From: Shigella phage ESh27
Length of the DNA: 64,000 nucleotides
Reading direction: 5' to 3' (one strand)
Sequence record: ON528737
Below, piece after piece: positions 1 to 28,096 of this stretch. Position numbers and translations under genes: made by a program. Position 1 is the first letter of the stretch; each line of letters begins with the position of its first letter. Under the pieces are notes generated by a model. That model was not told where the DNA came from. It ran no database searches and worked only from the letters and a program-made list of their open reading frames with translations.

Positions 1-9
1 GAAACCTCT

Positions 10-204
10 TTGTTAGATGGCTTTTTAGAAAAAAGGTGGTTCAGACATCCGGATTTTGATTGTGCTAATGAAATCTGTGGGTCAACGTGTACATATTGTG
101 AAAGATATTATAAACGTCAATTATCTAAAAATGGGTTAGCAGAAAACTCTATATCTATTATTGATATAACTAACTCTGATGACGCTTTGAGGTACCCGGA
201 ATGA
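10..204 (+). CDS. hypothetical small Cys-rich protein
   Basis: 64 aa ORF upstream of gene 42 with CxxC-type cysteine pairs; no family recognised. Confidence 0.3.
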   Translation: MLDGFLEKRWFRHPDFDCANEICGSTCTYCERYYKRQLSKNGLAENSISIIDITNSDDALRYPE

Positions 205-482: not shown

Positions 483-1199
483 ATGGGAAAACATAACACA
501 ATGAAATATATCAAAGCCGCAGATTTTCAAACCGCATTTAAAGCAGTCAATCGTGAAATTTTAGAAAACCCGGAATTCGTAACTGATTCTCGTATTGGAC
601 GTTGTAATGAAATTGGGTCTATGACCGTAGTTGTTGACACTCCATCATCATTCAAAATGACCGACCCACGTATTAATCGCATCTCTTATGAATATGCCGA
701 AGACTTCTGGAAGTTTATGATTTCTGGTGGTACCAACGCAGAAGAAGCGTTTAAGGCATATCCTAATGTCGCTAAATTTATTTCTAAACCAAAATCAGAT
801 GTTTTGCCGGCGAACTTCAACACTTTCTATGGTCCTCGCATTGCGGCCCAATTACCAGCTCTTCTCAAAGAACTTAAAGAGAAGCCTAACTCTCGAAGAG
901 TTGTGTTCCAAATTCTAGAAAGTTCTGATCAGGCTTTGCTTGATTCAGACGAAACACTTGAATATCCATGTACTGACTCAGTGACTTATTATATTCGTGA
1001 TGGTAAGCTTTATACACACTGTCATATGCGTTCTCAGAACTGTGCTGTTGTTATGCAGTTGGATTTTTATCTCCAAGGAAAATTACTTCATTATATCGCT
1101 AACGAATGTGGTGTAGAAGTTGGTGATTATACTCATACCATGGTAAGTGCCCATGTGTTTGAACGTGATTTTGATTATGTTAAAGGATTCCTTGACTAA
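483..1199 (+). CDS. 42: dCMP hydroxymethylase (gp42-like, thymidylate-synthase fold)
   Basis: 238 aa; TS-family core pattern incl. candidate catalytic Cys in EYPCTD and DGKL/RSQN block; syntenic with T4 gene 42; a separate bona fide td is at 49191. Confidence 0.8.
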   Translation: MGKHNTMKYIKAADFQTAFKAVNREILENPEFVTDSRIGRCNEIGSMTVVVDTPSSFKMTDPRINRISYEYAEDFWKFMISGGTNAEEAFKAYPNVAKFISKPKSDVLPANFNTFYGPRIAAQLPALLKELKEKPNSRRVVFQILESSDQALLDSDETLEYPCTDSVTYYIRDGKLYTHCHMRSQNCAVVMQLDFYLQGKLLHYIANECGVEVGDYTHTMVSAHVFERDFDYVKGFLD

Positions 1200-2098
1200 T
1201 GGCTATTTTCCGCGTACCAATCTTGAGTATGCGGTCTTATGAAACTGGACAGTATGCTATCCTTAAGGATGGCAACTTCCAACTTCATTTGCACCGTGCT
1301 AATCCAGGCGATGTGATTACATATCCACGTAATGCATCTGATATTAAAGAATGCGAACGTCTTTTCCCGGAATTTAAGTTTGTTCCATTATGGTATAAAG
1401 ATAACGCGTATAACACTCGTAAATATTTCTGGTCTGAAAACGAATTTGTTGTTGATTCATTAATTGCTTATTATGATTGTGATTTTCTAATCACAGATAT
1501 CACTGGATATGACGGCGCTTTTGATGTAGAATTCAATTTCAATATCACTGCAGACCCTAATAAACCACGTTTTTATATTGACGAATTCTTAAAAACCGAC
1601 ATGTTGTCGGTTAATCGTTCACTTCAAACTACTGTGTTGAATGAACGTCAAAAAGAAGTGCTGGTTAACGCAGGTGCAGACGATAATAAGATTATCGTAA
1701 CGCAGAAAGTTATACGTCCTTCCATCATGCAGCGTCTTGTAGGTGATTTGGCTCCTATTCATGTAGATGGTATTTTTCATCCATTTCGAATTAGTGATCC
1801 GTGTTATCATTTTGAACAAGTGGTTGAATGTGCAATTCAATTAGGTCAACCGCTTTATATAACCGATCCAAATAATAGCTTCGACAGAAATAAGTATCCT
1901 GAAGAAGCGCTGATTCGAATTTTTAAACCAACTAAAACTGAGTACTACCAAATTCTTAAAGGACGTCCGAAGATTCAATATTTCGAAAATCCTGAAGAAG
2001 TATTCCATCCAGGTCTTGGTGAGTTCATCTACTTTAATGCTTTAATTTCTTCGCCGTATAATATACCTAAATACGAAGATGTCGTAATCGAGGAATAA
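1199..2098 (+). CDS. hypothetical protein in the beta-glucosyltransferase slot (candidate DNA-modification enzyme)
   Basis: 299 aa; ATG overlaps gene 42 stop (TAATG) and stop abuts next ATG, so translationally coupled; family not recognisable by eye. Confidence 0.6.
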   Translation: MAIFRVPILSMRSYETGQYAILKDGNFQLHLHRANPGDVITYPRNASDIKECERLFPEFKFVPLWYKDNAYNTRKYFWSENEFVVDSLIAYYDCDFLITDITGYDGAFDVEFNFNITADPNKPRFYIDEFLKTDMLSVNRSLQTTVLNERQKEVLVNAGADDNKIIVTQKVIRPSIMQRLVGDLAPIHVDGIFHPFRISDPCYHFEQVVECAIQLGQPLYITDPNNSFDRNKYPEEALIRIFKPTKTEYYQILKGRPKIQYFENPEEVFHPGLGEFIYFNALISSPYNIPKYEDVVIEE

Positions 2099-2099
2099 A

Positions 2100-2648
2100 A
2101 TGGCTAAAATTATTTTAGTAGATGGCCCGGATAATGCCGGTAAAACAACTTTCATTAATGACATAATGGAAATTAGTGAAAGATATGTAAAGATTGATTT
2201 CCCTAAACGAACAGTTGATGGACGTTTCGATGTTAAGTCTCGAAATGAAGTTGGTTGTTTCGAAACGATGTTGAATTATTTAGACCCTACTAAGATTTAT
2301 CTGTTAGACCGTGGATATATTAGTAACTGGGTTTATGGACGTATTCGACAAGATGCGGACTCGGTTCTTGACGTTTATGAACAGGATTATGTTCGTCTTT
2401 GTCAAAACCATGATGTGTTCACAATTATTTTAACACGTAACGAAATGACTGAAAGTTTTGAAGACGACCTTATTACTTTGTCTTCATTCGGTTTTAATAC
2501 AGTCATTTCACATTTTGAAGAGTTTGCAATTCATAACAAAATCCAAACGTATCAATTACTTAATCATGATGGTGCTAACAAAGTTATAGGATTTAATGCA
2601 AGCGAACGTAATGATTTGATTACAGAAATTATCAAATGGGCTCGTTAA
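2100..2648 (+). CDS. P-loop nucleotide-kinase-like protein
   Basis: 182 aa; Walker A GPDNAGKTT and a DRG motif resembling the thymidylate/dNMP kinase DRY/DRS motif. Confidence 0.6.
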   Translation: MAKIILVDGPDNAGKTTFINDIMEISERYVKIDFPKRTVDGRFDVKSRNEVGCFETMLNYLDPTKIYLLDRGYISNWVYGRIRQDADSVLDVYEQDYVRLCQNHDVFTIILTRNEMTESFEDDLITLSSFGFNTVISHFEEFAIHNKIQTYQLLNHDGANKVIGFNASERNDLITEIIKWAR

Positions 2649-2747: not shown

Positions 2748-3920
2748 ATGTCTGATTTAAAATCTCGTCTGATTAAAGCTTCTACTTCTAAAATGACTGC
2801 AGACTTGACTAAGTCTAAGCTGTTTAATAATCGTGATGAAGTCCCTACTCGTATTCCGATGTTGAATATTGCACTAGGTGGTGCTCTGAATGCAGGATTG
2901 CAATCAGGCTTGACTATTTTTGCTGCACCTTCTAAACATTTTAAAACATTGTTTGGACTAACTATGGTTGCAGCGTATATGAAGAAATATAAAGATGCAA
3001 TCTGTTTGTTCTATGATTCGGAATTTGGTGCTTCGGAATCTTACTTCCGTTCGATGGGTGTTGATTTGGACCGCGTAGTTCATACACCAATTCAGTCTGT
3101 CGAACAACTTAAAGTCGATATGACTAATCAGCTTGATGCTATTGAACGCGGTGATAAAGTTATTATCTTTATCGATTCAATCGGTAATACTGCATCTAAG
3201 AAAGAAACCGAAGATGCATTGAACGAGAAAGTTGTAGGTGATATGTCTCGTGCTAAGGCACTTAAATCTCTGTTCCGCATTGTGACTCCTTATCTGACTA
3301 TTAAAGATATTCCGTGTGTTGCAATCAACCATACAGCAATGGAAATCGGCGGACTATATCCTAAAGAGATTATGGGTGGTGGTACAGGTATTCTTTACTC
3401 TGCTAACACTGTATTCTTTATCTCTAAACGTCAGGTTAAAGAAGGTACAGAATTGACCGGTTATGACTTCACGTTGAAAGCAGAAAAATCTCGTACGGTT
3501 AAAGAGAAATCTACTTTCCCGATCACGGTTAATTTTGATGGCGGTATTGACCCATTCAGCGGCTTGTTAGAAATGGCAACTGAAATTGGTTTTGTGGTTA
3601 AACCTAAAGCCGGTTGGTATGCTCGTGAATTCCTTGACGAAGAAACAGGTGAAATGATTCGTGAAGAGAAATCATGGCGTGCTAAAGCTACTGATTGCGT
3701 AGAATTCTGGGGACCGTTGTTTAAACACAAACCTTTCCGAGATGCAATTGAAACTAAATATAAACTAGGTGCTATCTCTTCTATTAAAGAAGTTGATGAC
3801 GCTGTTAACGATCTTATTAATTGCAAAGCAACAACTAAAGTTCCGGTTAAAACTTCTGATGCTCCATCTGCAGCAGATATAGAAAACGACCTTGACGAAA
3901 TGGAAGATTTCGATGAATAA
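2748..3920 (+). CDS. uvsX: UvsX RecA-like recombinase
   Basis: 390 aa; N-terminus MSDLKSRLIKASTSK and acidic C-tail; RecA core with P-loop-like APSKHFKT; matches T4 UvsX length. Confidence 0.95.
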   Translation: MSDLKSRLIKASTSKMTADLTKSKLFNNRDEVPTRIPMLNIALGGALNAGLQSGLTIFAAPSKHFKTLFGLTMVAAYMKKYKDAICLFYDSEFGASESYFRSMGVDLDRVVHTPIQSVEQLKVDMTNQLDAIERGDKVIIFIDSIGNTASKKETEDALNEKVVGDMSRAKALKSLFRIVTPYLTIKDIPCVAINHTAMEIGGLYPKEIMGGGTGILYSANTVFFISKRQVKEGTELTGYDFTLKAEKSRTVKEKSTFPITVNFDGGIDPFSGLLEMATEIGFVVKPKAGWYAREFLDEETGEMIREEKSWRAKATDCVEFWGPLFKHKPFRDAIETKYKLGAISSIKEVDDAVNDLINCKATTKVPVKTSDAPSAADIENDLDEMEDFDE

Positions 3921-4254
3921 TCTCGATGATTTGAATCTAGAAATCGTTGATGAATCCCCTTCTTCGGAAGGGGAAGACATTCGCAAAGAACGAGTGTTTA
4001 ATGAATCTCTTAAAATTATCCGTTCAGCAATGGAAAATGTCATTCAAGAGATTCTGATTACACTTGAAGACGGTTCTCATCATATAGTCTATATTACAAA
4101 ACTAGACTGGGTTGATGGTAAAATCGTAATGGACTTTGCAGTTCTTGACCAGGACAGAAAAGCAGAACTTGCGCCGCATGTTGAAAAATGTGTTACAATG
4201 CAGGTACAACAAGCTTTTAATGAACGAACCAAGAAAAAATTTAAATTCTTTTAA
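3913..4254 (+). CDS. 40: gp40-like head vertex assembly protein
   Basis: Synteny between uvsX and 41; ATG at 3913 overlaps uvsX stop; ORF-track start 3892 is a TTG. Confidence 0.5.
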   Translation: MNNLDDLNLEIVDESPSSEGEDIRKERVFNESLKIIRSAMENVIQEILITLEDGSHHIVYITKLDWVDGKIVMDFAVLDQDRKAELAPHVEKCVTMQVQQAFNERTKKKFKFF

Positions 4255-4263
4255 GGAGTTATC

Positions 4264-5706
4264 GTGGTAGAAATTATTTTGTCTCATCTCGTATATGACC
4301 AGGCTTATTTTTCTAAGGTCTGGCCTTATATGGATTCTGATTACTTTGAGCGTGGACCGGCAAAAAATGTCTTTAAAATTATAAAGAGCCACGTTAACGA
4401 ATATAATGCAATGCCATCCATCAATGCATTAAAGGTGGCTTTAGATAACAGTTCTTTAACTGAAGCCGAATATAAAGGAACTTCAGACCTAATTGAAAAA
4501 TTGGCTGATACTCCTGAAGACCACGAATGGTTGGTTAAAGAAACTGAGAAATATGTCCAGCAAAAAGCGATGTATAATGCCACGTCCAAAATCATTGAGA
4601 TTCAGACTAATGCCGAACTACCTCCAGAACAACGTAACAAGAAAATGCCTGACGTAGGAGCTATTCCTGATATTATGCGTCAAGCACTTTCAATTTCGTT
4701 TGATAGTTATGTTGGTCACGACTGGATGGAAGACTATGAAGCACGCTGGCTTTCTTATCTAAATAAAGCACGTAAGGTCCCGTTCAAATTAAACATTCTG
4801 AATAAAATCACCAAAGGTGGTGCAGAAACAGGTACACTGAACGTTTTAATGGCTGGTGTTAACGTTGGTAAATCTTTAGGCCTTTGTTCACTTGCCGCAG
4901 ATTATCTTCAAACAGGACATAATGTTCTTTATATTTCCATGGAAATGGCTGAAGAAGTTTGTGCTAAGCGTATAGATGCAAACATGCTTGACGTATCACT
5001 CGATGATATCGATGATGGTAACGTATCTTATGCTGAATATAAAGCCAAGATGGAAAAATGGCGTTCAAAATCCACATTAGGACGTTTAGTAGTCAAACAG
5101 TATCCTACTGGTGGAGCTAATGCTAATACATTCCGTGCATTGCTTAATGAATTGAAACTCAAGAAGAACTTTGTGCCGTCTGTAATTATAGTCGATTACT
5201 TAGGTATTTGTGGGTCTTGTCGTATCAGAGTTTACACCGAAAATAGTTACACATTAGTTAAAGCTATCGCAGAAGAACTTCGTGCATTAGCAGTAGAATC
5301 TGAAACAGTTCTATGGACTGCAGCTCAAGTAGGACGTGCAGCATGGGATGCTTCAGACATGAACATGAGTGATATCGCAGAATCAGCAGGTTTACCAGCA
5401 ACGGCAGATTTCATGTTGGCCGTAATTGAAACTGAAGAACTTGCACAAGCTGAACAACAACTTATCAAACAAATCAAATCACGATACGGTGATAAGAATA
5501 AGTGGAACAAGTTCTTGATGGGTGTACGTAAAGGCAATCAGAAATGGGTTGAGATTGAGCAAGAAGGCATGAACACACCTAACACAGTAAATGAAAACGC
5601 AGGTGCTCAGATGCGTCAGGCAGAGGTGAATCGTACGGAACGCGTAGGTAAAGCCAAAGCAACACGTGCTGACCTAGATAGCTTAGCCAATGAGTTAAAA
5701 TTTTAA
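4264..5706 (+). CDS. 41: gp41 replicative DNA helicase (DnaB-like)
   Basis: 480 aa; Walker A GVNVGKS; N-terminus MVEIILSHL; GTG start; T4 synteny. Confidence 0.9.
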   Translation: MVEIILSHLVYDQAYFSKVWPYMDSDYFERGPAKNVFKIIKSHVNEYNAMPSINALKVALDNSSLTEAEYKGTSDLIEKLADTPEDHEWLVKETEKYVQQKAMYNATSKIIEIQTNAELPPEQRNKKMPDVGAIPDIMRQALSISFDSYVGHDWMEDYEARWLSYLNKARKVPFKLNILNKITKGGAETGTLNVLMAGVNVGKSLGLCSLAADYLQTGHNVLYISMEMAEEVCAKRIDANMLDVSLDDIDDGNVSYAEYKAKMEKWRSKSTLGRLVVKQYPTGGANANTFRALLNELKLKKNFVPSVIIVDYLGICGSCRIRVYTENSYTLVKAIAEELRALAVESETVLWTAAQVGRAAWDASDMNMSDIAESAGLPATADFMLAVIETEELAQAEQQLIKQIKSRYGDKNKWNKFLMGVRKGNQKWVEIEQEGMNTPNTVNENAGAQMRQAEVNRTERVGKAKATRADLDSLANELKF

Positions 5707-7746: not shown

Positions 7747-8040
7747 ATGAAAAAGTTATCATTGGCAGCAATCTTACTTGCAGTATCGTGTGCACCGGCT
7801 CCAGTTACAGCAGGTTATGATAAAGACCTCTGTGAGTGGTCAATGACTGCAAATCAAGAAGATGTTGAACAACAAATCTTCTCTGATATCATGAACATCA
7901 CTAAACGAGACCGTCCTAATATGGTTAATAAAGTTGTTGAACAACTTAAGTCTGGCGGTATCATGCAGTACAACTATGTTTTGTATTGTGACCCTAATTT
8001 CGATAACAAAGATATCATAACCGAAATCACAGGTGAATAA
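7747..8040 (+). CDS. sp: spackle-like periplasmic protein (Sp)
   Basis: 97 aa with cleavable signal peptide; size and position between 41 and 61 match T4 sp. Confidence 0.55.
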   Translation: MKKLSLAAILLAVSCAPAPVTAGYDKDLCEWSMTANQEDVEQQIFSDIMNITKRDRPNMVNKVVEQLKSGGIMQYNYVLYCDPNFDNKDIITEITGE

Positions 8041-8041
8041 T

Positions 8042-8692
8042 ATGATTTATTATATGCACAAAAACGCGCCATTTAAATATGGTAAATTTCCTAATGCACA
8101 ATGTTATAATATAACGCCGAATGAAAATAATAACGGATACCATATTGGTGTAATTTTTGTAATTGTTAAAGATAACGAAATCGTTGCCTGGGCAGATTTT
8201 AAAGGTACAACGTATGACGTTAATCCGGTTCCGTTCACATATTATAATTTAATGGATTTGGCATACGACTATAATTGGTTTACTCATGATACTCTGGCAC
8301 ATGTTGAAGGCGTAGGATTTGACATCTCTTATTCTAGTTATTCATTATGTCCTATGAGCCGAGCTCACGGTAAAGATGTATCATATCTTTCAATTCGGAA
8401 ACGTGTAAACTTCAAACGTAGTACAGAGTATGTTGGTGGACTCTTTGTTAAAGATAATAAAATAACCCGTATTAGTTATCCTTTAAGTGTAGGTCAAAAA
8501 GATGTTGATGTTGATTTAGACTTAACTGAAAATAACATTAATCACATTGCTTCTGTATATTTTGATATCGATGAAAAAATTGTAGTGTGTGGATACGAAT
8601 TACCACCTGAAGAAAAGGCTGAAGCAATTGAAGTCGAATTAGAAATTTCTGTTGATGACCAAATATTTAATGCATTTATGAATCGAGGTTAA
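8042..8692 (+). CDS. hypothetical protein
   Basis: 216 aa; ATG 8042 immediately after sp stop. Confidence 0.5.
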   Translation: MIYYMHKNAPFKYGKFPNAQCYNITPNENNNGYHIGVIFVIVKDNEIVAWADFKGTTYDVNPVPFTYYNLMDLAYDYNWFTHDTLAHVEGVGFDISYSSYSLCPMSRAHGKDVSYLSIRKRVNFKRSTEYVGGLFVKDNKITRISYPLSVGQKDVDVDLDLTENNINHIASVYFDIDEKIVVCGYELPPEEKAEAIEVELEISVDDQIFNAFMNRG

Positions 8693-20850: not shown

Positions 20851-22668
20851 ATGATTAAAAATGAAATTAAGGTACTGTCAGATGTAGAACATATTAAGAA
20901 ACGTAGTGGTATGTATATTGGTTCTTCTGCTAAAGAAGCACATGAACGTTTTTTGTTTGGTAAATATCAACAAGTTGAATATGTTCCTGGTCTGGTTAAA
21001 TTAATCGATGAGATTATTGACAACTCGGTTGATGAAGCTATTCGTACATCATTTAAGTTTGCAAATAAAATTGATGTGCAAATTAAAAATAATCAAGTTT
21101 CGGTGGAAGATAACGGACGTGGTATTCCTCAAGGTTTAGTTACCGACCAAACGGGTGAACAAATTCCTGGGCCTGTTGCAGCCTGGACTATTCCAAAAGC
21201 CGGTGGTAACTTTGGTGATGACTCTGAACGTAAGACTGGTGGTATGAACGGCGTCGGGAGTAGTTTAACTAATATCTTCTCTACGTTGTTTACAGGCATA
21301 ACGTCAGATGGCGAAAATGAAATCACTGTTAACTGTTCAAACGGGATGGAAAACAAATCATGGTCTTCTAAGAAATCTAAAGGTAAAGGCACTAAAGTAA
21401 TCTTCACTCCTGATTTCACTTCATTTGAAGAGCATAATTTATCTCAAATTTATTTAGATATTACTTTAGACCGACTTCAAACATTGGCAGTCGTTTATCC
21501 TGATATCAAGTTCACATTTAACGGTAAAAAGGTTGATGGTAATTTTAAACGATTTGCTAAACAATTTGGCGAAGATAATATCATTCAAGAAAATGATAAA
21601 GTCTCTATAGCATTCACAACATCACCAGATGGCTTCCGTCATTTAACTTATGTGAATAACATCCATACTAAAAATGGTGGACATCATGTTGAATGTGTAA
21701 TGGACGATATCTGCGAACATCTTTTGCCAGGTATTAAAAAGAAATATAAGGGTATTGAAGTCACTAAAGCTCGTGTTAAAGAATGCCTCACAATGTTGAT
21801 GTTTATTAGAGACATGAGTAACATGCGTTTTGATTCTCAGACTAAAGAACGTTTAACGTCAACATATGGTGATATTCGTAATCATATCCAATTAGATGCT
21901 AAGAAAATTGCTCAGGCACTTCTTAAAAACGAAGCCTTGATTATGCCTATTGTTGAAGCAGCATTAGCTCGTAAATTGGCAGCAGAAAAGGCTGCAGAAA
22001 CTAAAGCAGCTAAAAAGGCCACTAAAGCTAAGGTTCATAAGCATATTAAAGCTAACCAATGCGGTAAAGATGCAGATACGACATTGTTTTTAACAGAAGG
22101 TGATTCGGCAATTGGATATCTCATTGATGTTCGTGACCGTGAACTACATGGCGGATTCCCATTACGTGGTAAGGTGATGAATAGCTGGGGTATGTCATAT
22201 GCTGATATGATGAAGAACAAAGAGCTCTTTGATATCTGTGCTATCACAGGTCTTATTCTTGGTGAAAAAGCAGAGAATACGAACTATCGTAATATTGCAA
22301 TTATGACCGATGCCGATCATGACGGTCTTGGAAGTATCTATCCGGCTTTGCTTGCTTTCTTTAGTAATTGGCCTGAATTGTTTGAACAAGGACGTATTCG
22401 CTTTGTTAAAACGCCTGTAATTATTGCACAAATTGGCAAAACACAAAAATGGTTTTATACTGTAGCTGAGTATGAAGAAGCTAAAGATACACTGCCTAAG
22501 CATAGTATTCGATACATCAAGGGATTAGGCTCCCTTGAAAAGTCAGAATATCGTGAAATGATTCAGAACCCTGTGTACGACGTAGTTAAACTTCCTGAAA
22601 ATTGGAAAGAACTCTTTGAAATGTTGATGGGTGATGATTCAGAACTTCGTAAAGAATGGATGTCCTAA
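20851..22668 (+). CDS. 39: DNA topoisomerase II large subunit (gp39 with gp60 fused)
   Basis: 605 aa continuous; GHKL ATPase motif EDNGRGIP, TOPRIM LTEGDSA; covers both 39 and 60 of T4 in one frame. Confidence 0.9.
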   Translation: MIKNEIKVLSDVEHIKKRSGMYIGSSAKEAHERFLFGKYQQVEYVPGLVKLIDEIIDNSVDEAIRTSFKFANKIDVQIKNNQVSVEDNGRGIPQGLVTDQTGEQIPGPVAAWTIPKAGGNFGDDSERKTGGMNGVGSSLTNIFSTLFTGITSDGENEITVNCSNGMENKSWSSKKSKGKGTKVIFTPDFTSFEEHNLSQIYLDITLDRLQTLAVVYPDIKFTFNGKKVDGNFKRFAKQFGEDNIIQENDKVSIAFTTSPDGFRHLTYVNNIHTKNGGHHVECVMDDICEHLLPGIKKKYKGIEVTKARVKECLTMLMFIRDMSNMRFDSQTKERLTSTYGDIRNHIQLDAKKIAQALLKNEALIMPIVEAALARKLAAEKAAETKAAKKATKAKVHKHIKANQCGKDADTTLFLTEGDSAIGYLIDVRDRELHGGFPLRGKVMNSWGMSYADMMKNKELFDICAITGLILGEKAENTNYRNIAIMTDADHDGLGSIYPALLAFFSNWPELFEQGRIRFVKTPVIIAQIGKTQKWFYTVAEYEEAKDTLPKHSIRYIKGLGSLEKSEYREMIQNPVYDVVKLPENWKELFEMLMGDDSELRKEWMS

Positions 22669-22690
22669 GCTCCTTCGGGAGCTTCATTTT
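22668..22690 (+). terminator. terminator-like hairpin after gene 39
   Basis: AGCTCC-TTCG-GGAGCT hairpin followed by CATTTTAATTTT. Confidence 0.5.
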
Positions 22691-22710: not shown

Positions 22711-23811
22711 ATGAAAGTTATGTTTATCCCATCTCGCGCAGTCCCGTTTAACCCAGAACGTGTACAAGGTGGTCTTGAAGCAGTACATTTAAATGTGTTG
22801 AAATATCTTGTGTCCATCGGTGCTGATATTGATTATATCGGCTTTGATAATGACACGTTTGGTGACTGGAAAGTTACACACCATCCTGTTGGTCATCTGA
22901 CTAAATTCAGTCTAGGTATGAGTTATACTATGGCTCGTAAGATTGTTGAACTAGCCGGCATTAATGAGTACGATTTCGTTGTTACAATGGAACCGACCAA
23001 ACTAACCGTTCAGGCAATTAAAGACGCAGGTCTCTCTAAAGTTCATAAGAATTTTATGGCAACACCATTTGAACCGGTATCTCGTGGCATTGTTCAAATT
23101 TGGGACCAGACTATTCAAATTCATAAGAATGGTGGTAAGAGTTATGCTCCTACTAAAGCCTTCCGTGAATTTGAACGCAAATATTGTTATATGACTTCAG
23201 GACTGACTGACAAAATTGATTATGATTATTGGCGAGCAAATCCGTTGTTTGAAGCCGAAGATTATCCGGTTATTTGTTTGACTGAAAAACCGGAAGTTCT
23301 CCCAGCAACTGATTTGATTATTAGTGCTCAACGTTATGACACTAAGATGCGTCGTACTGATGTTGCTCTTGAAGCGATTAAAGCATTAGGCGAAAATGGT
23401 ATTGGTTATTGTCCAAGCAAATGGGCACCACCAGCTAAGTATCCTGTTATTATTGATGCTCCACACAGTGAAATCATGGAACGTCTTAAAACAGCTAAAG
23501 CACTTATTAATACGTGTCCTGACACGGGTACGGTAGAGAATAGTTCTATTGAAGCCATCTCTAAAGGTGTCCCTGTAATTCAGTTAGTTTTTAAGGATTA
23601 TCCGCATGCGACATTCGAATATGACCCAGATACTGTGCGTGTAGAAATTGATTCCTCTACTCCTAAGAAAGAAGTAGTTGCGCTTTACACAAAAGCTGTA
23701 TTAGAATTCACTGACACGTACGAAGCTCGAGTTAAACGTGCTGAAGCAGTATGGAAGAAGTATAACCGAGATGCAGTTGTTGCAATGTGGGATAAAATCT
23801 TCACAGCGTAA
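22711..23811 (+). CDS. putative GT-B fold glycosyltransferase (candidate DNA sugar transferase)
   Basis: 366 aa; C-terminal TGTVENSSIEAISKGVPVI resembles the GT1/GT4 E-x7-E donor-binding region; sits between 39 and rIIA. Confidence 0.55.
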   Translation: MKVMFIPSRAVPFNPERVQGGLEAVHLNVLKYLVSIGADIDYIGFDNDTFGDWKVTHHPVGHLTKFSLGMSYTMARKIVELAGINEYDFVVTMEPTKLTVQAIKDAGLSKVHKNFMATPFEPVSRGIVQIWDQTIQIHKNGGKSYAPTKAFREFERKYCYMTSGLTDKIDYDYWRANPLFEAEDYPVICLTEKPEVLPATDLIISAQRYDTKMRRTDVALEAIKALGENGIGYCPSKWAPPAKYPVIIDAPHSEIMERLKTAKALINTCPDTGTVENSSIEAISKGVPVIQLVFKDYPHATFEYDPDTVRVEIDSSTPKKEVVALYTKAVLEFTDTYEARVKRAEAVWKKYNRDAVVAMWDKIFTA

Positions 23812-23903
23812 ATCCTGAATCGCCTGAGGCACTATTACACATAAGATGATAGATTATATGGTCTTTAGTAATAGTGCCCTAGGAATCTACTGAAGAGAAT
23901 ATT

Positions 23904-24104
23904 ATGAGAACATATAACGTGGACTTGGAACTTTTTGATAAAGCAGTGCTCCGGGAATTCCGGCTTATCCAAAGATTTTTTGATATCGAGTCAGCAGAGT
24001 TCTTTAAAGAACGCTTTAAAGAAATTCGATATAAAATACAAACCGATACAGCTACTAAAGAAGAACTTCTTGAAGTAGCAGAAATTTTTAAACGTAACTT
24101 GTGA
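23904..24104 (+). CDS. hypothetical protein
   Basis: 66 aa; overlapped by a longer antisense ORF, plus-strand copy preferred by operon direction. Confidence 0.35.
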   Translation: MRTYNVDLELFDKAVLREFRLIQRFFDIESAEFFKERFKEIRYKIQTDTATKEELLEVAEIFKRNL

Positions 24105-24116
24105 TGAGAGAAAAAT

Positions 24117-26330
24117 ATGATTATTGAAACGGCTAAAGAAACGATTATTGGTTCAGGCGGTAAGAGCACAGCATTCACTATTCAAGGCAATAGCAAAGTT
24201 TATAAGATTTTGTCTAATGACCTTTATACAAACAAAGAATTGGCTTGTGTACGTGAATTAATTACAAACTGTATCGATGGACAAATTCTTAATGGTTGCA
24301 CTGATAAGTTTATTGTTCAGGCTCCAGGTCGTTTAGACCCACGCTTTGTAGTTCGAGACTTTGGTCCTGGTATGAGCGATTTCACTATTCGAGGTAATGA
24401 CGAAGAGCCAGGAATCTATAACTCATATTTTGCTTCAACTAAAACATCGAGCAACGATTTCATTGGTGGATTCGGGCTCGGCTCTAAAGCTCCGCTAGCA
24501 TATACCGATACGTTTAACCTTACGTCTTATCACAACGGTGAAGTTCGTGGTTACGTAATCTACCAAGATGACACAGGTCCACAAATTAAGCCGACCTTTG
24601 TAGATAAAATGGGTCCTGATGACCGTACGGGTGTAGAAGTAGTTGTACCGGTTAACCCGGAAGATTTTGAAAAATTCGCATCCGAAATTGCATATGTTAT
24701 GCGTCCTCTAGGTGATATTGCAGAAGTTCGTGGTGTTAAAGATATTAAATACTTCCCAGAATTTGATGATGTATATTTGGCCAAGGAAGCTCCATGGGGT
24801 GAACGTGGTAACATCATGGCTGTTTACGGTGGTATTGTATATCCAATCGGAAGTGTTATTAAAGAACAAACATGGATGATGACGCGATGCACTACAGCTT
24901 ATATTAAATTCCCTATGGGTGAACTAGATGTAGCCCCGTCTCGTGAAGCATTGTCATTTGATAAACGTACAGTAGCAAATATCCATAAACGTGTTGCAGA
25001 AATCGATGCTAAATTGTTCGCTGAAGATTCTAAGAAATGGATTGATTGTAAATACCCACGTCATGTGTTCCGTGAAATTGATTCTCTTGGTTATACCGCT
25101 CGTAAATACATGGAAAAGGCCGGGTCTAATATTGAATCACTGAAATACTCTAAAGAACAACTAACTTATTCTGAGTTGTACAAACGTTTTAAAATGGGAC
25201 CTGAGTGGTGTAATCTTGGTGTCGTATACGATATCGTTGAATCCCCTCGTCTTCGTCGTATTCGTGAAAGTGGTAGCTCATCATCAACCATTTCAATTAA
25301 CAGCCTGATTGGCATTAACATTAAAAACGTTGAAATTGTTATTGACGACGTTAAGGGACGCGTTCCATTAATGCGAGCTCTTAATTCAATTGAAATGTCT
25401 AAAGACGAGGTTAAATTATCCGGTAAAGTTCCACGCGGTTTTGGTAAAAGCGTACTATTCGTTGACCCTACAGACGAAGATGCAATGAAACTTCTGGAAC
25501 GCCTTAAAGTTATCTTTGATGGCGATAGCATTAACATGTACAAGACTTCAGAGCTTTTACAAATCGTTAAGCCATGGATTGAAGTCAGGAAACGGACTAA
25601 TGAGCCTCGTCCTAAATCCCCAAGTGCTCATCGATTCTTTAAGAATGAAAACGATGTTTGGGTATCAGAAGACCTCTTTATTCCGGCAAGTGAAGCAGAT
25701 GAAATCCAAGGTTATGCTATAGTTCGTAATCGTTCTAATGCTGAATGTCTTGACGCAGATAAAGGTTGGTTGAACTATGACTCCAATTTCTTGACCCGTA
25801 TTGCTGATTTGTCAGGTATTAAAGAGTTCACTGTAGTTCGTCCACAGATTGCTAAGAAAGTTCGTAAACTTGGTGAAGTAGAATGTTTGTTTGAAAAATC
25901 AATTAATGACTATATTATGCTAATCGATAAAGTAGATTATGATGAGTATGTATCACCAAGTCGTAGAGCACAGCCTTATTTGAATCATATTACTCGTAAC
26001 GAAGAGCTTAATTTCCTTAGTAAGTATTTTAGCTCTAAGAACAAAGAAATCAGTAAAGACTTTGCAAAACTCTCAACAGTAAATAATCGTTGGGGATGGA
26101 ATCGATTCGCAGGTGCTACTAATACAGACCTGAACAGGAAGTTAGAATTGTGTGCTAAAATTTTCGATAAGCTTAAAGATAATGCTTACGATAATGATGA
26201 TAAAATGGTTATTGAATTCGAAACCAATTATCATATTGTGTCAGAATACATGGGACGACGTGGTACTCTTTCTAAAGAACAAGTCGCTCAAATCGTTAAA
26301 TTCATGAAGGCCGTGGAAGCGGCCAAATAA
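24117..26330 (+). CDS. rIIA: rIIA lysis-inhibition / membrane protector protein
   Basis: 737 aa; N-terminal GHKL-like region (ELITNCIDG, GGFGLGSK); size and position next to rIIB. Confidence 0.8.
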   Translation: MIIETAKETIIGSGGKSTAFTIQGNSKVYKILSNDLYTNKELACVRELITNCIDGQILNGCTDKFIVQAPGRLDPRFVVRDFGPGMSDFTIRGNDEEPGIYNSYFASTKTSSNDFIGGFGLGSKAPLAYTDTFNLTSYHNGEVRGYVIYQDDTGPQIKPTFVDKMGPDDRTGVEVVVPVNPEDFEKFASEIAYVMRPLGDIAEVRGVKDIKYFPEFDDVYLAKEAPWGERGNIMAVYGGIVYPIGSVIKEQTWMMTRCTTAYIKFPMGELDVAPSREALSFDKRTVANIHKRVAEIDAKLFAEDSKKWIDCKYPRHVFREIDSLGYTARKYMEKAGSNIESLKYSKEQLTYSELYKRFKMGPEWCNLGVVYDIVESPRLRRIRESGSSSSTISINSLIGINIKNVEIVIDDVKGRVPLMRALNSIEMSKDEVKLSGKVPRGFGKSVLFVDPTDEDAMKLLERLKVIFDGDSINMYKTSELLQIVKPWIEVRKRTNEPRPKSPSAHRFFKNENDVWVSEDLFIPASEADEIQGYAIVRNRSNAECLDADKGWLNYDSNFLTRIADLSGIKEFTVVRPQIAKKVRKLGEVECLFEKSINDYIMLIDKVDYDEYVSPSRRAQPYLNHITRNEELNFLSKYFSSKNKEISKDFAKLSTVNNRWGWNRFAGATNTDLNRKLELCAKIFDKLKDNAYDNDDKMVIEFETNYHIVSEYMGRRGTLSKEQVAQIVKFMKAVEAAK

Positions 26331-26339
26331 GGAAACATT

Positions 26340-27275
26340 ATGTACAATATCAAATGCTTGTCCCAAGAAGAACAGTTAGAAGCTTACGGCCTGGTTGAAT
26401 CAGGCAAATGGACTCGTAAAGAAATTGCCGATTACTTCGACATTTCAACAGATACTCTTCGTAAGATTGTTAAGAATTTTAAAGCTGAAGAGAAAGCAGC
26501 TGAATTTGAAGACGAAGAACAGATCCCAGAAAATGATGAACCTATTATCGGCGGACATCGTCCAGAAATCGTATGGAACGCGTCATCTAAATTTATTTCA
26601 ATCATTGAAGGACGCGTAGCATACAATGCGACCCCATCAAGTCATGCAAATTTTGAAGAAATTAAAACTAATCTGGTCGCAGGAAACCTTAGTAAAGCTG
26701 TTGAACTTATTAACGTCAAGAAAGCTATTACTAAGTTTGTTGACGGTAATGTTACTATTGAAGGTGGTAGTTTATTTTATCAAGGTATAGAAATTCGTTC
26801 AGGTCTGGTTAATCGTATTATTGATTCCATGGAAAAAGGCGAAGACTTTAAATTCTATCTGCCGTTCCTTGAAAACCTGTTAGAAAACCCGAGCGAAAAA
26901 GCTGTACAACGTTTATTCGACTTCTTGGTTGCAAATGATATTGAAATCACTGAAGATGGGCATTTCTACGCGTGGAAAGTAGTTCGTAAAGATTATTTAG
27001 ATTGCTATAGCGGTACATTTGATAACTCCCCAGGTAAAGTTGTTTCAATGCCTCGTACTCGTGTTAACGATGATGATACACAAACCTGCTCCCGTGGTCT
27101 ACATGTTTGCGCTAAATCATATATTCGTTACTTTGGTTCTAGCTCAGATAAAGTTGTTAAGGTTAAAGTTCATCCGCGCGATGTTGTATCTATCCCGGTT
27201 GACTACGGTGATGCTAAGATGCGTACTTGTCGTTATGAAGTAATTTCAGACGTTACTGAATTATTTGCAGAATAA
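26340..27275 (+). CDS. rIIB: rIIB protein
   Basis: 311 aa; N-terminus MYNIKCL and block GGSLFYQ...LENLLENPS...HVCAKSY; terminator follows. Confidence 0.85.
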   Translation: MYNIKCLSQEEQLEAYGLVESGKWTRKEIADYFDISTDTLRKIVKNFKAEEKAAEFEDEEQIPENDEPIIGGHRPEIVWNASSKFISIIEGRVAYNATPSSHANFEEIKTNLVAGNLSKAVELINVKKAITKFVDGNVTIEGGSLFYQGIEIRSGLVNRIIDSMEKGEDFKFYLPFLENLLENPSEKAVQRLFDFLVANDIEITEDGHFYAWKVVRKDYLDCYSGTFDNSPGKVVSMPRTRVNDDDTQTCSRGLHVCAKSYIRYFGSSSDKVVKVKVHPRDVVSIPVDYGDAKMRTCRYEVISDVTELFAE

Positions 27276-27280
27276 TAATT

Positions 27281-27302
27281 GGGGACTTCGGTCCCCTTTT
27301 TC
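27281..27302 (+). terminator. intrinsic terminator after rIIB
   Basis: GGGGAC-TTCG-GTCCCC hairpin + TTTTT. Confidence 0.7.
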
Positions 27303-27315
27303 TTTAGGGGTAATT

Positions 27316-27603
27316 ATGATTCATCCATTTGACGTATCAGAATCCAAAATTGCTAATCTTCGTGGTCATCATAAGTGTAAATCAGTTTATTGTGCTAAAT
27401 TGGTAAAACATCCTGGTGATGCACACTATGGCTGGTTAGAATGCGACGAAGTTGTTATTGAAATCCCACCGGTAGATGCTAACTATCTTGAAGAAGGAGA
27501 CCGCATTTATTTTGGCGAACTACACATCAGAGGTATCTATGGTAAAGACGAACTTGGGACTGTTGAGACTGAAGAATCTTCCGACATTTATCCTGTCGAA
27601 TGA
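27316..27603 (+). CDS. hypothetical protein
   Basis: 95 aa from ATG 27316, downstream of the rIIB terminator. Confidence 0.4.
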   Translation: MIHPFDVSESKIANLRGHHKCKSVYCAKLVKHPGDAHYGWLECDEVVIEIPPVDANYLEEGDRIYFGELHIRGIYGKDELGTVETEESSDIYPVE

Positions 27604-28096
27604 GTTTTTGACTAGTGAAATGAAAGTGAAGATTGCTGACACTGCTCGGTATTCATTGAGCCAAAATCCAGACCAAAACAAAGAAGATGTAGTTCGACGT
27701 TGTAAGGTTGCAGTCTTTGCAGAGTATGTAGTAGCAAATTGGCTAGACGGATATGTTAATAAAGGTAATGAAGACGTAGAAGACCCGTACACATATGCAT
27801 GGGACGTGTTAGCCCATCCTAAATATTGTGGAATTCGTGTAGAAGTCAAGACACATCAGATGGATTCTAAATGGATTTCTGTTACCACAGGATACAGTGG
27901 TGATTATCCGGGTGGCAACGGAATCAACATAGGGCCATTCCTGAATCATCGAGTTGCAGACTGTATTATTATATTGAATGTCAAAGAAACCTCACCTGAC
28001 GTCTTCTCTTATTCTATAAAGTTCGTGGGAGACCATGAAGACCTAAAGAAAATCGTTCGTAAGAGCAACTACAACGGGTGGTATCTTCAACTTTAA
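27539..28096 (+). CDS. hypothetical protein (DenB-sized; alternative start 27620)
   Basis: 185 aa if started at ATG 27539 (SD AGAGG); overlaps previous ORF by 65 nt; function unassigned. Confidence 0.4.
   Translation: MVKTNLGLLRLKNLPTFILSNEFLTSEMKVKIADTARYSLSQNPDQNKEDVVRRCKVAVFAEYVVANWLDGYVNKGNEDVEDPYTYAWDVLAHPKYCGIRVEVKTHQMDSKWISVTTGYSGDYPGGNGINIGPFLNHRVADCIIILNVKETSPDVFSYSIKFVGDHEDLKKIVRKSNYNGWYLQL

Follow-up and report, generated by a model that had tools for sequence, protein, structure and literature searches.

A GT-B glycosyltransferase encoded between gene 39 and rIIA.1 of Shigella phage ESh27, a probable chain-extending enzyme of phage DNA arabinosylation

The 64,000-nucleotide stretch of Shigella phage ESh27 DNA analysed here (sequence record ON528737, hereafter the window) contains an intact open reading frame (ORF) at 22711..23811 on the + strand, which starts with ATG, lies between topoisomerase gene 39 and rIIA.1/rIIA, and encodes a 366-amino-acid (aa) glycosyltransferase (GT). 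The GT protein is very probably a chain-extending arabinosyltransferase that makes a beta(1-3) disaccharide, and not the enzyme that modifies the base. This second-sugar role follows from the copy-number pattern of the protein family across phages, the activity of its homologs from phage DLP3, the existence of a separate and ubiquitous first GT, and a published assignment. For the GT protein itself, we infer both the beta(1-3) linkage of the second sugar and the use of uridine diphosphate (UDP)-arabinofuranose (UDP-Araf) as the donor. A sequence-only reading of the window had placed the ORF, its length and its neighbours correctly, and had seen in it a candidate for the transfer of arabinose to 5-hydroxymethylcytosine (hmC) or for another DNA sugar transferase. 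That reading is right in kind and outdated in detail, and it reproduces a hypothesis published in 2018.

The gene is not new: its publication dates from 2018 and an annotation from 2021, the name Aat was given later, in Bas46, and a structure has been available since 2025. An arabinosyltransferase role for RB69 ORF003c was put forward by Thomas et al. (2018) on the basis of hidden Markov model (HMM)/HHpred searches and a Phyre2 GT-B model (PMC6024577). ORF003c (RB69p003, NP_861693.1) is 98.4% identical to the GT protein, and Bas47 gp105, which GenBank calls a “putative hmC-arabinosyltransferase”, is 98% identical. RB69 gp3 has been assigned as “beta-arabinosyltransferase 2” by Lee et al. 2026 (PMC13326640). 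According to a secondary citation (PMC13216743), Bas46 becomes sensitive to a defence system once aat is deleted. Annotation labels lag behind this literature. Most Mosigvirus records carry “hypothetical protein”, Acinetobacter phage records carry “putative DNA alpha-glucosyltransferase”, and the labels of the family in PHROG 8302 and in the Mosigvirus, Acinetobacter and Bas47 records are out of date with respect to 5-hydroxycytosine chemistry.

The modified base of RB69 has been characterised by tandem mass spectrometry (MS/MS) and nuclear magnetic resonance (NMR) as beta-D-Araf-(1-3)-alpha-D-Araf ether-linked to 5-hydroxy-2'-deoxycytidine, with no hydroxymethyl group (Lee et al. 2026, PMC13326640). 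In place of the arabinosyl-hmC suggested by the sequence-only reading, arabinose ether-linked to 5-hydroxycytosine is present in the DNA of RB69, NP and Bas46/47 (PMC13326640; PMC13390438), and the window itself carries the corresponding enzyme signature. The 5-hydroxy-deoxycytidine monophosphate (5-hydroxy-dCMP) synthase is a thymidylate-synthase homolog marked by D169N together with L143E/N177D (PMC13326640). The ThyA homolog near the 5' end of the window is about 97% identical to the proteins in PDB entries 9iqc and 9ir2, the former being the HY126 enzyme. In an ungapped HMMER alignment to canonical ThyA, it keeps C146, R166 and S167 and carries L143E, D169N and N177D. A gapped Smith-Waterman alignment to E. 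coli ThyA was rejected in favour of the ungapped one since its two gaps broke the conserved R166-S167 pair. Because the ThyA homolog has these three substitutions, the window phage is predicted to make 5-hydroxycytosine and not hmC; a T4-type setting with an hmC glucosyltransferase was rejected, as the pattern is that of 5-hydroxy-dCMP and not of 5-hydroxymethyl-dCMP synthesis.

The gene for the ThyA homolog is followed by a 299-aa ORF, whose product is 46% identical to DLP3 gp79 (E=6e-91). A first-transferase role has been proposed for RB69 gp46:47 and DLP3 gp79 (PMC13326640), and the window protein is accordingly a candidate for the base-proximal, alpha-arabinosyltransferase. Direct comparison of this protein with the GT protein revealed no sequence similarity (E=0.89). 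Next comes a 182-aa kinase-like ORF, which has no Pfam match and is placed in the modification module through Table 1 of PMC13326640. The gene order over 483..2648 matches that of DLP3 078-079-080. The GT gene thus co-occurs in the window with both the 5-hydroxy-dCMP synthase gene and the gene of the first GT.

The two transferases are distributed differently in the phage collection. The first GT was found once per record in 348 phage records, including Klebsiella, Serratia, Enterobacter, Proteus, Yersinia, Dhakavirus and Shewanella Thanatos phages, among others. The family of the GT protein is present in only 211 records, which belong to Mosigviruses, Acinetobacter phages and one Tegunavirus (a homolog of less than 60% identity); no Shewanella (Thanatos) or Serratia phage was among these 211 matching records. 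Every group has a single first GT, and the number of family members changes with the number of sugars. Thanatos has no family member and mono-arabinosylated DNA (PMC13326640). Mosigviruses (RB69, NP, Bas46/47) have one member and mainly two arabinoses: RB69 and phage NP contain both mono- and di-arabinosyl-dC, at 1:4 in NP (PMC13390438), and Bas46 and Bas47 are reported to be doubly arabinosylated (PMC12923530). Two members are present in Acinetobacter phages, for example DLP1 and DLP2, and DLP3 DNA bears a third beta-Araf, i.e., it is tri-arabinosylated (PMC13326640). Wherever the chemistry is known, there is one family copy fewer than there are arabinoses. In the Acinetobacter phages, the two paralogs are adjacent and lie inside the modification cluster (3143..5438 in the Acinetobacter phage locus L003); in DLP3, they are gp76 and gp77.

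The GT protein aligns over its full length with DLP3 gp77 (42% identity, E=2e-108) and with gp76 (40% identity). In vitro, gp76 and gp77 acting jointly extend the sugar on RB69 DNA by another arabinose, with UDP-Araf as the donor, and have no activity on plain 5-hydroxycytosine (5hoC) DNA (PMC13326640). This bears directly on the 2018 hypothesis for ORF003c, according to which the GT protein would be the primary transferase and attach the first arabinose to the modified cytosine. We regard this as improbable: homologs that are idle on 5hoC DNA extend DNA that is already arabinosylated, a separate GT adjoins the 5-hydroxy-dCMP synthase and is present in every arabinosylating lineage, Thanatos and Serratia phages have that first GT without a member of the family, family copy number follows the extra sugars, and the base itself is 5-hydroxycytosine, not hmC. 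The suggestion of the sequence-only reading that the gene encodes a DNA sugar transferase outside the a-gt/b-gt loci holds inasmuch as it points to the arabinose system and RB69 ORF003c, but the first sugar on the base is probably the work of the unrelated GT.

The fold of the GT protein was assigned by structure comparison. An AlphaFold2 model built from a 13-sequence alignment, which came from an exhaustive HMMER search, reached a pLDDT of 92.2 and a pTM of 0.88; an earlier model from six sequences (pLDDT 56) was discarded. The best Foldseek matches of the model were 9ir0, entitled “phage HY126 glycosyltransferase with UDP”, and 9iqz (TM 0.96, 98% identity), and a search of PDB sequences led to the same 98%-identical chain. 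They were followed by GT4-type GT-B enzymes, namely BshA, PimA, MshA, WaaG and the tetrahydrobiopterin (BH4) glucosyltransferase. The model has two Rossmann-like beta/alpha/beta domains with a cleft between them, and we assign the GT protein to the GT-B glycosyltransferases, as the sequence-only reading had proposed. Crystallisation of the ortholog with UDP, as given by the title of entry 9ir0, is indirect evidence that the GT protein binds a nucleotide donor.

The donor site is represented by a GT4-like segment covering residues 265 to 291, LINTCPDTGTVENSSIEAISKGVPVIQ, which contains E276-x4-E281. Across the family, N267, T268, T274, E281, A282, G286 and Q291 are near-invariant, as are R208, R214 and G20/G21 among the other donor-site residues. 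The stretch E281-A282...G286 takes the place of the second Glu in the canonical E-x7-E motif, and the position of the first Glu is occupied by Gly273, a glycine conserved in the family. A literal E-x7-E scan found nothing in the C-terminal domain (none after residue 94); the sole such pair, E86..E94, belongs to the N-terminal domain, against a chance expectation of about 1.5 pairs. The E-x7-E-like donor region at the protein end in the sequence-only reading can therefore be kept as a GT4-like segment with E281, located about 75 residues ahead of the C-terminus and with E276-x4-E281 in place of the literal motif.

The family is very small, with 11 clusters (50% identity) among the 1.84 billion representatives searched exhaustively with HMMER. 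The GT protein matches PHROG 8302 from end to end (1-366/366, E=1e-221), a family labelled “unknown function”. The structural neighbours named above are enzymes that glycosylate lipopolysaccharide (LPS), lipids and small molecules (PimA, WaaG, BshA and the BH4 glucosyltransferase), and the GT gene is about 20 kb away from the rest of the arabinose module. Both facts would fit an enzyme acting on host LPS or lipid, a virion protein or a small molecule, with only an incidental link to the DNA pathway. Such a non-DNA acceptor is nevertheless highly unlikely, considering that the family, within the phage collection, is confined almost entirely to Mosigviruses and Acinetobacter phages, that examined members of both carry the 5-hydroxycytosine/arabinose module, that the Acinetobacter paralogs sit directly inside it, and that the DLP3 paralogs act on DNA in vitro. 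So few clusters in so large a sequence space also argue against a general cell-surface function.

Several points weigh against the assignment of the GT protein as the second-sugar transferase. The accessible literature holds no direct assay of a Mosigvirus protein, and the role of the Mosigvirus ortholog is drawn from homology, phyletic pattern and published proposals. Neither DLP3 paralog is active alone (PMC13326640), so the lone Mosigvirus copy might need a partner or particular conditions. A Pfam scan of the GT protein returned no family at E<=1, Glycos_transf_1 and Glyco_trans_4 included, an NCBIfam scan gave no match either, and the canonical E-x7-E is degenerate in the sequence. A profile of the family searched against PDB sequences found 9iqz only. 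Since these sequence profiles find no GT family, the GT fold is visible by structure comparison only; of the family searches envisaged by the sequence-only reading, it was the structural one that gave GT-B. Finally, the nearest structural neighbours are retaining GT4 enzymes, but the linkage attributed to the GT protein is beta and that of the first sugar alpha. Relatives in CAZy family GT4 are retaining alpha-transferases.

The mutual dependence of gp76 and gp77 and the missing first Glu of E-x7-E could also mean that the GT protein is a non-catalytic, GT-like accessory subunit that needs another transferase. We consider this very improbable, because Mosigviruses make the disaccharide with one family member, hardly any variation is seen at the donor-site residues E281, R208, R214 and G20/G21, a crystal structure of the HY126 ortholog in complex with UDP exists, and the GT gene is under strong purifying selection (see below).

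The stereochemistry deserves separate mention. With an alpha sugar next to the base and a beta sugar after it, both derived from one UDP-Araf donor, the reactions of the two phage GTs have to be stereochemically opposite. It is conceivable, though we think it rather unlikely, that the GT protein is unusual in stereochemistry or mechanism, being either an inverting enzyme on a GT4-like scaffold or, as the single Mosigvirus copy, tolerant of different acceptors. Either would be a mechanistic oddity, and an acceptor-tolerant Mosigvirus enzyme might be used to produce designer DNA glycans.

With the GT protein as the chain-extending enzyme, the pathway may be envisaged as follows. The ThyA homolog would make 5-hydroxy-dCMP, which would be phosphorylated and incorporated into DNA instead of dC. 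The first GT, which is unrelated to the GT protein, would then put alpha-D-arabinofuranose on the 5-hydroxyl. The 366-aa GT-B enzyme would bind UDP-arabinofuranose in its C-terminal Rossmann domain (E281 and the R208/R214 region) and extend the first sugar on DNA at O3 by another arabinofuranose. This would give beta-D-Araf-(1-3)-alpha-D-Araf-5-hydroxy-dC, which is the main base of RB69-type DNA, and the bulkier disaccharide would alter the range of host nucleases, glycosylases and CRISPR systems able to act on the genome.

The ORF is a real gene and not a chance frame, as follows from its full-length conservation, an excess of synonymous changes relative to RB69, and the crystallised protein of 98% identity. 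In 209 of the 211 matching phage records, 80% or more of the ORF length is conserved, and a Shine-Dalgarno-like AAGG element is located 8 nt 5' of the start codon. Compared with RB69, the gene has 40 synonymous and six non-synonymous codon differences, against an expectation of only 23% synonymous among random single-base changes; it is under strong purifying selection. The 6-8 substitutions that separate the protein from those of RB69 and Bas47 (e.g., E16D, N85H and T191N) all fall outside the family-invariant columns. The GC content over the gene is 0.39, equal to that of the neighbours, and a recent foreign insertion was rejected on this ground.

The features of the window referred to in the text are collected in Table 1.

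Table 1. Positions of the GT gene, its donor-site segment, the modification module, the neighbouring genes and the flanking hairpins in the window
Feature	Position	Strand	Basis or remark
ThyA homolog, predicted 5-hydroxy-dCMP synthase, RB69 gp48 ortholog	483..1199	+	Pfam Thymidylat_synt, E=2e-15
299-aa ORF, proposed first (base-proximal, alpha) arabinosyltransferase, RB69 gp46:47 and DLP3 gp79 ortholog	1199..2098	+	homology
182-aa kinase-like ORF in the position of RB69 gp45 / DLP3 gp78, just ahead of uvsX	2100..2648	+	orthologs annotated “thymidylate kinase”
Gene 39, topoisomerase II large subunit, fused 605-aa ORF	20851..22668	+	Pfam DNA_gyraseB/HATPase_c/Toprim; PHROG 543
Terminator-like UUCG-loop hairpin	22667..22684	+	7-bp stem, 4 G-C pairs, T-rich tail
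GT gene (aat-like), ortholog of RB69 ORF003c, Bas47 gp105 and the HY126 glycosyltransferase	22711..23811	+	ORF, orthology, fold
GT4-like nucleotide-sugar-binding segment	23503..23583	+	codons 265-291, motif scan
Stable hairpin in the spacer (92 nt) between the GT gene and rIIA.1	23823..23883	+	folding energy vs shuffles
rIIA.1	23904..24104	+	PF24210, E=7e-30
rIIA	24117..26330	+	flank of the GT gene
rIIB	26340..27275		downstream of rIIA

In T4, the interval reads rIIA - rIIA.1 - 60 - 60.1 - mobA - 39 and contains no glycosyltransferase, in agreement with the sequence-only reading. The arrangement rIIA - rIIA.1 - ORF003c - 39 is common to the window, RB69 and Bas47, and the position of the GT gene between gene 39 and rIIA.1 has also been described for Mosigvirus (PMC13390438). 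At the DNA level, about 150 Mosigvirus (RB69-like) genomes match the region with 97-98% identity, and the window itself comes from a Mosigvirus. Gene 39 is one fused ORF here; in T4, the same protein is encoded by two genes, 39 and 60, which are separated by 60.1 and mobA, and translational bypass occurs. The slot right after the fused gene 39 is held by the GT gene, and this junction is evidently plastic in T4-like phages.

Both spacers around the GT gene contain a hairpin. The first one, directly after gene 39 and 27 nt ahead of the GT start codon, has a folding energy of -10.5 kcal/mol (z=-1.5), which alone is not exceptional, and a “terminator” is annotated in the matched region of related GenBank records. 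The second has an 11-bp perfect stem, GGCACTATTAC/GTAATAGTGCC, without a T-run; its energy of -28.5 kcal/mol (z=-4.24) was equalled by none of 200 shuffles, and it is conserved at 97-99% in RB69 and Bas47. An Rfam scan of the GT gene flanks, this hairpin included, gave no match, and a scan for sigma-70 promoters near the gene found nothing above the shuffle expectation.

Some other parts of the window may be mentioned briefly. The 3' end of a gene annotated “peptidase” in related records (U32-type in some) occupies bases 1..201. The 219-aa ORF at 8033..8692 encodes full-length AdfA, anti-DarT factor A (PF23813, E=1e-119), whose gene is known to serve counter-defence in T4-like phages. Two overlapping ORFs follow rIIB, at 27265..27603 (112 aa) and 27476..28096 (206 aa); the latter has no Pfam match and, by position, could be a denB-region gene.

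Whether a given restriction, CRISPR, glycosylase or type IV system can attack a phage depends on the sugar decoration of its DNA, and RB69-like phages are common candidates for therapy. Recognition of the GT gene lets an annotator predict di-arabinosylated 5-hydroxycytosine in phage DNA, i.e., DNA that resists many restriction enzymes, is poorly base-called by nanopore sequencing and has a particular profile of sensitivity to defence systems. The value of the present assignment for the window lies in correct annotation and not in discovery; most database records still read “hypothetical”.

Among known systems, the alpha- and beta-glucosyltransferases of T4 differ from the GT protein in several respects. 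There is no relationship at the sequence level (no Pfam hit), the locus is different, and kinship of the GT gene with a-gt or b-gt was rejected for want of homology to either family. The T4 enzymes belong to an hmC base, whereas the window phage is predicted to carry arabinofuranose on 5-hydroxycytosine, and the acceptor of the GT protein is most likely a sugar hydroxyl and not a base substituent. Bacterial GT4 enzymes (PimA, MshA, BshA, WaaG and sucrose-phosphate synthase) are only 10-15% identical to the GT protein, which differs from them in the lack of a Glycos_transf_1/Glyco_trans_4 match, in Gly273 at the place of the first Glu, in the DNA acceptor and in the attributed beta linkage.

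Closer relatives are found in DLP3, whose gp77 and gp76, designated arabinosyltransferases 2/3, share with the GT protein the donor-site segment NTC..TGTVEN.S.EAIS.G.PV.QL. DLP3 has two adjacent paralogs in the modification cluster and makes a trisaccharide, while the window phage has a single copy, which lies at the 39/rIIA junction some 20 kb from the other module genes, and, judging by homology, should make nothing longer than the disaccharide. The closest counterparts are RB69 ORF003c, Aat of Bas46 and Bas47, and the HY126 glycosyltransferase (9iqz, 9ir0), which are alike in length (366 aa, 98-99% identity), position between 39 and rIIA.1, fold (TM 0.96), and the accompanying 5-hydroxy-dCMP synthase and first GT. 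The GT protein differs from them by only 6-8 substitutions, and nothing suggests a different function.

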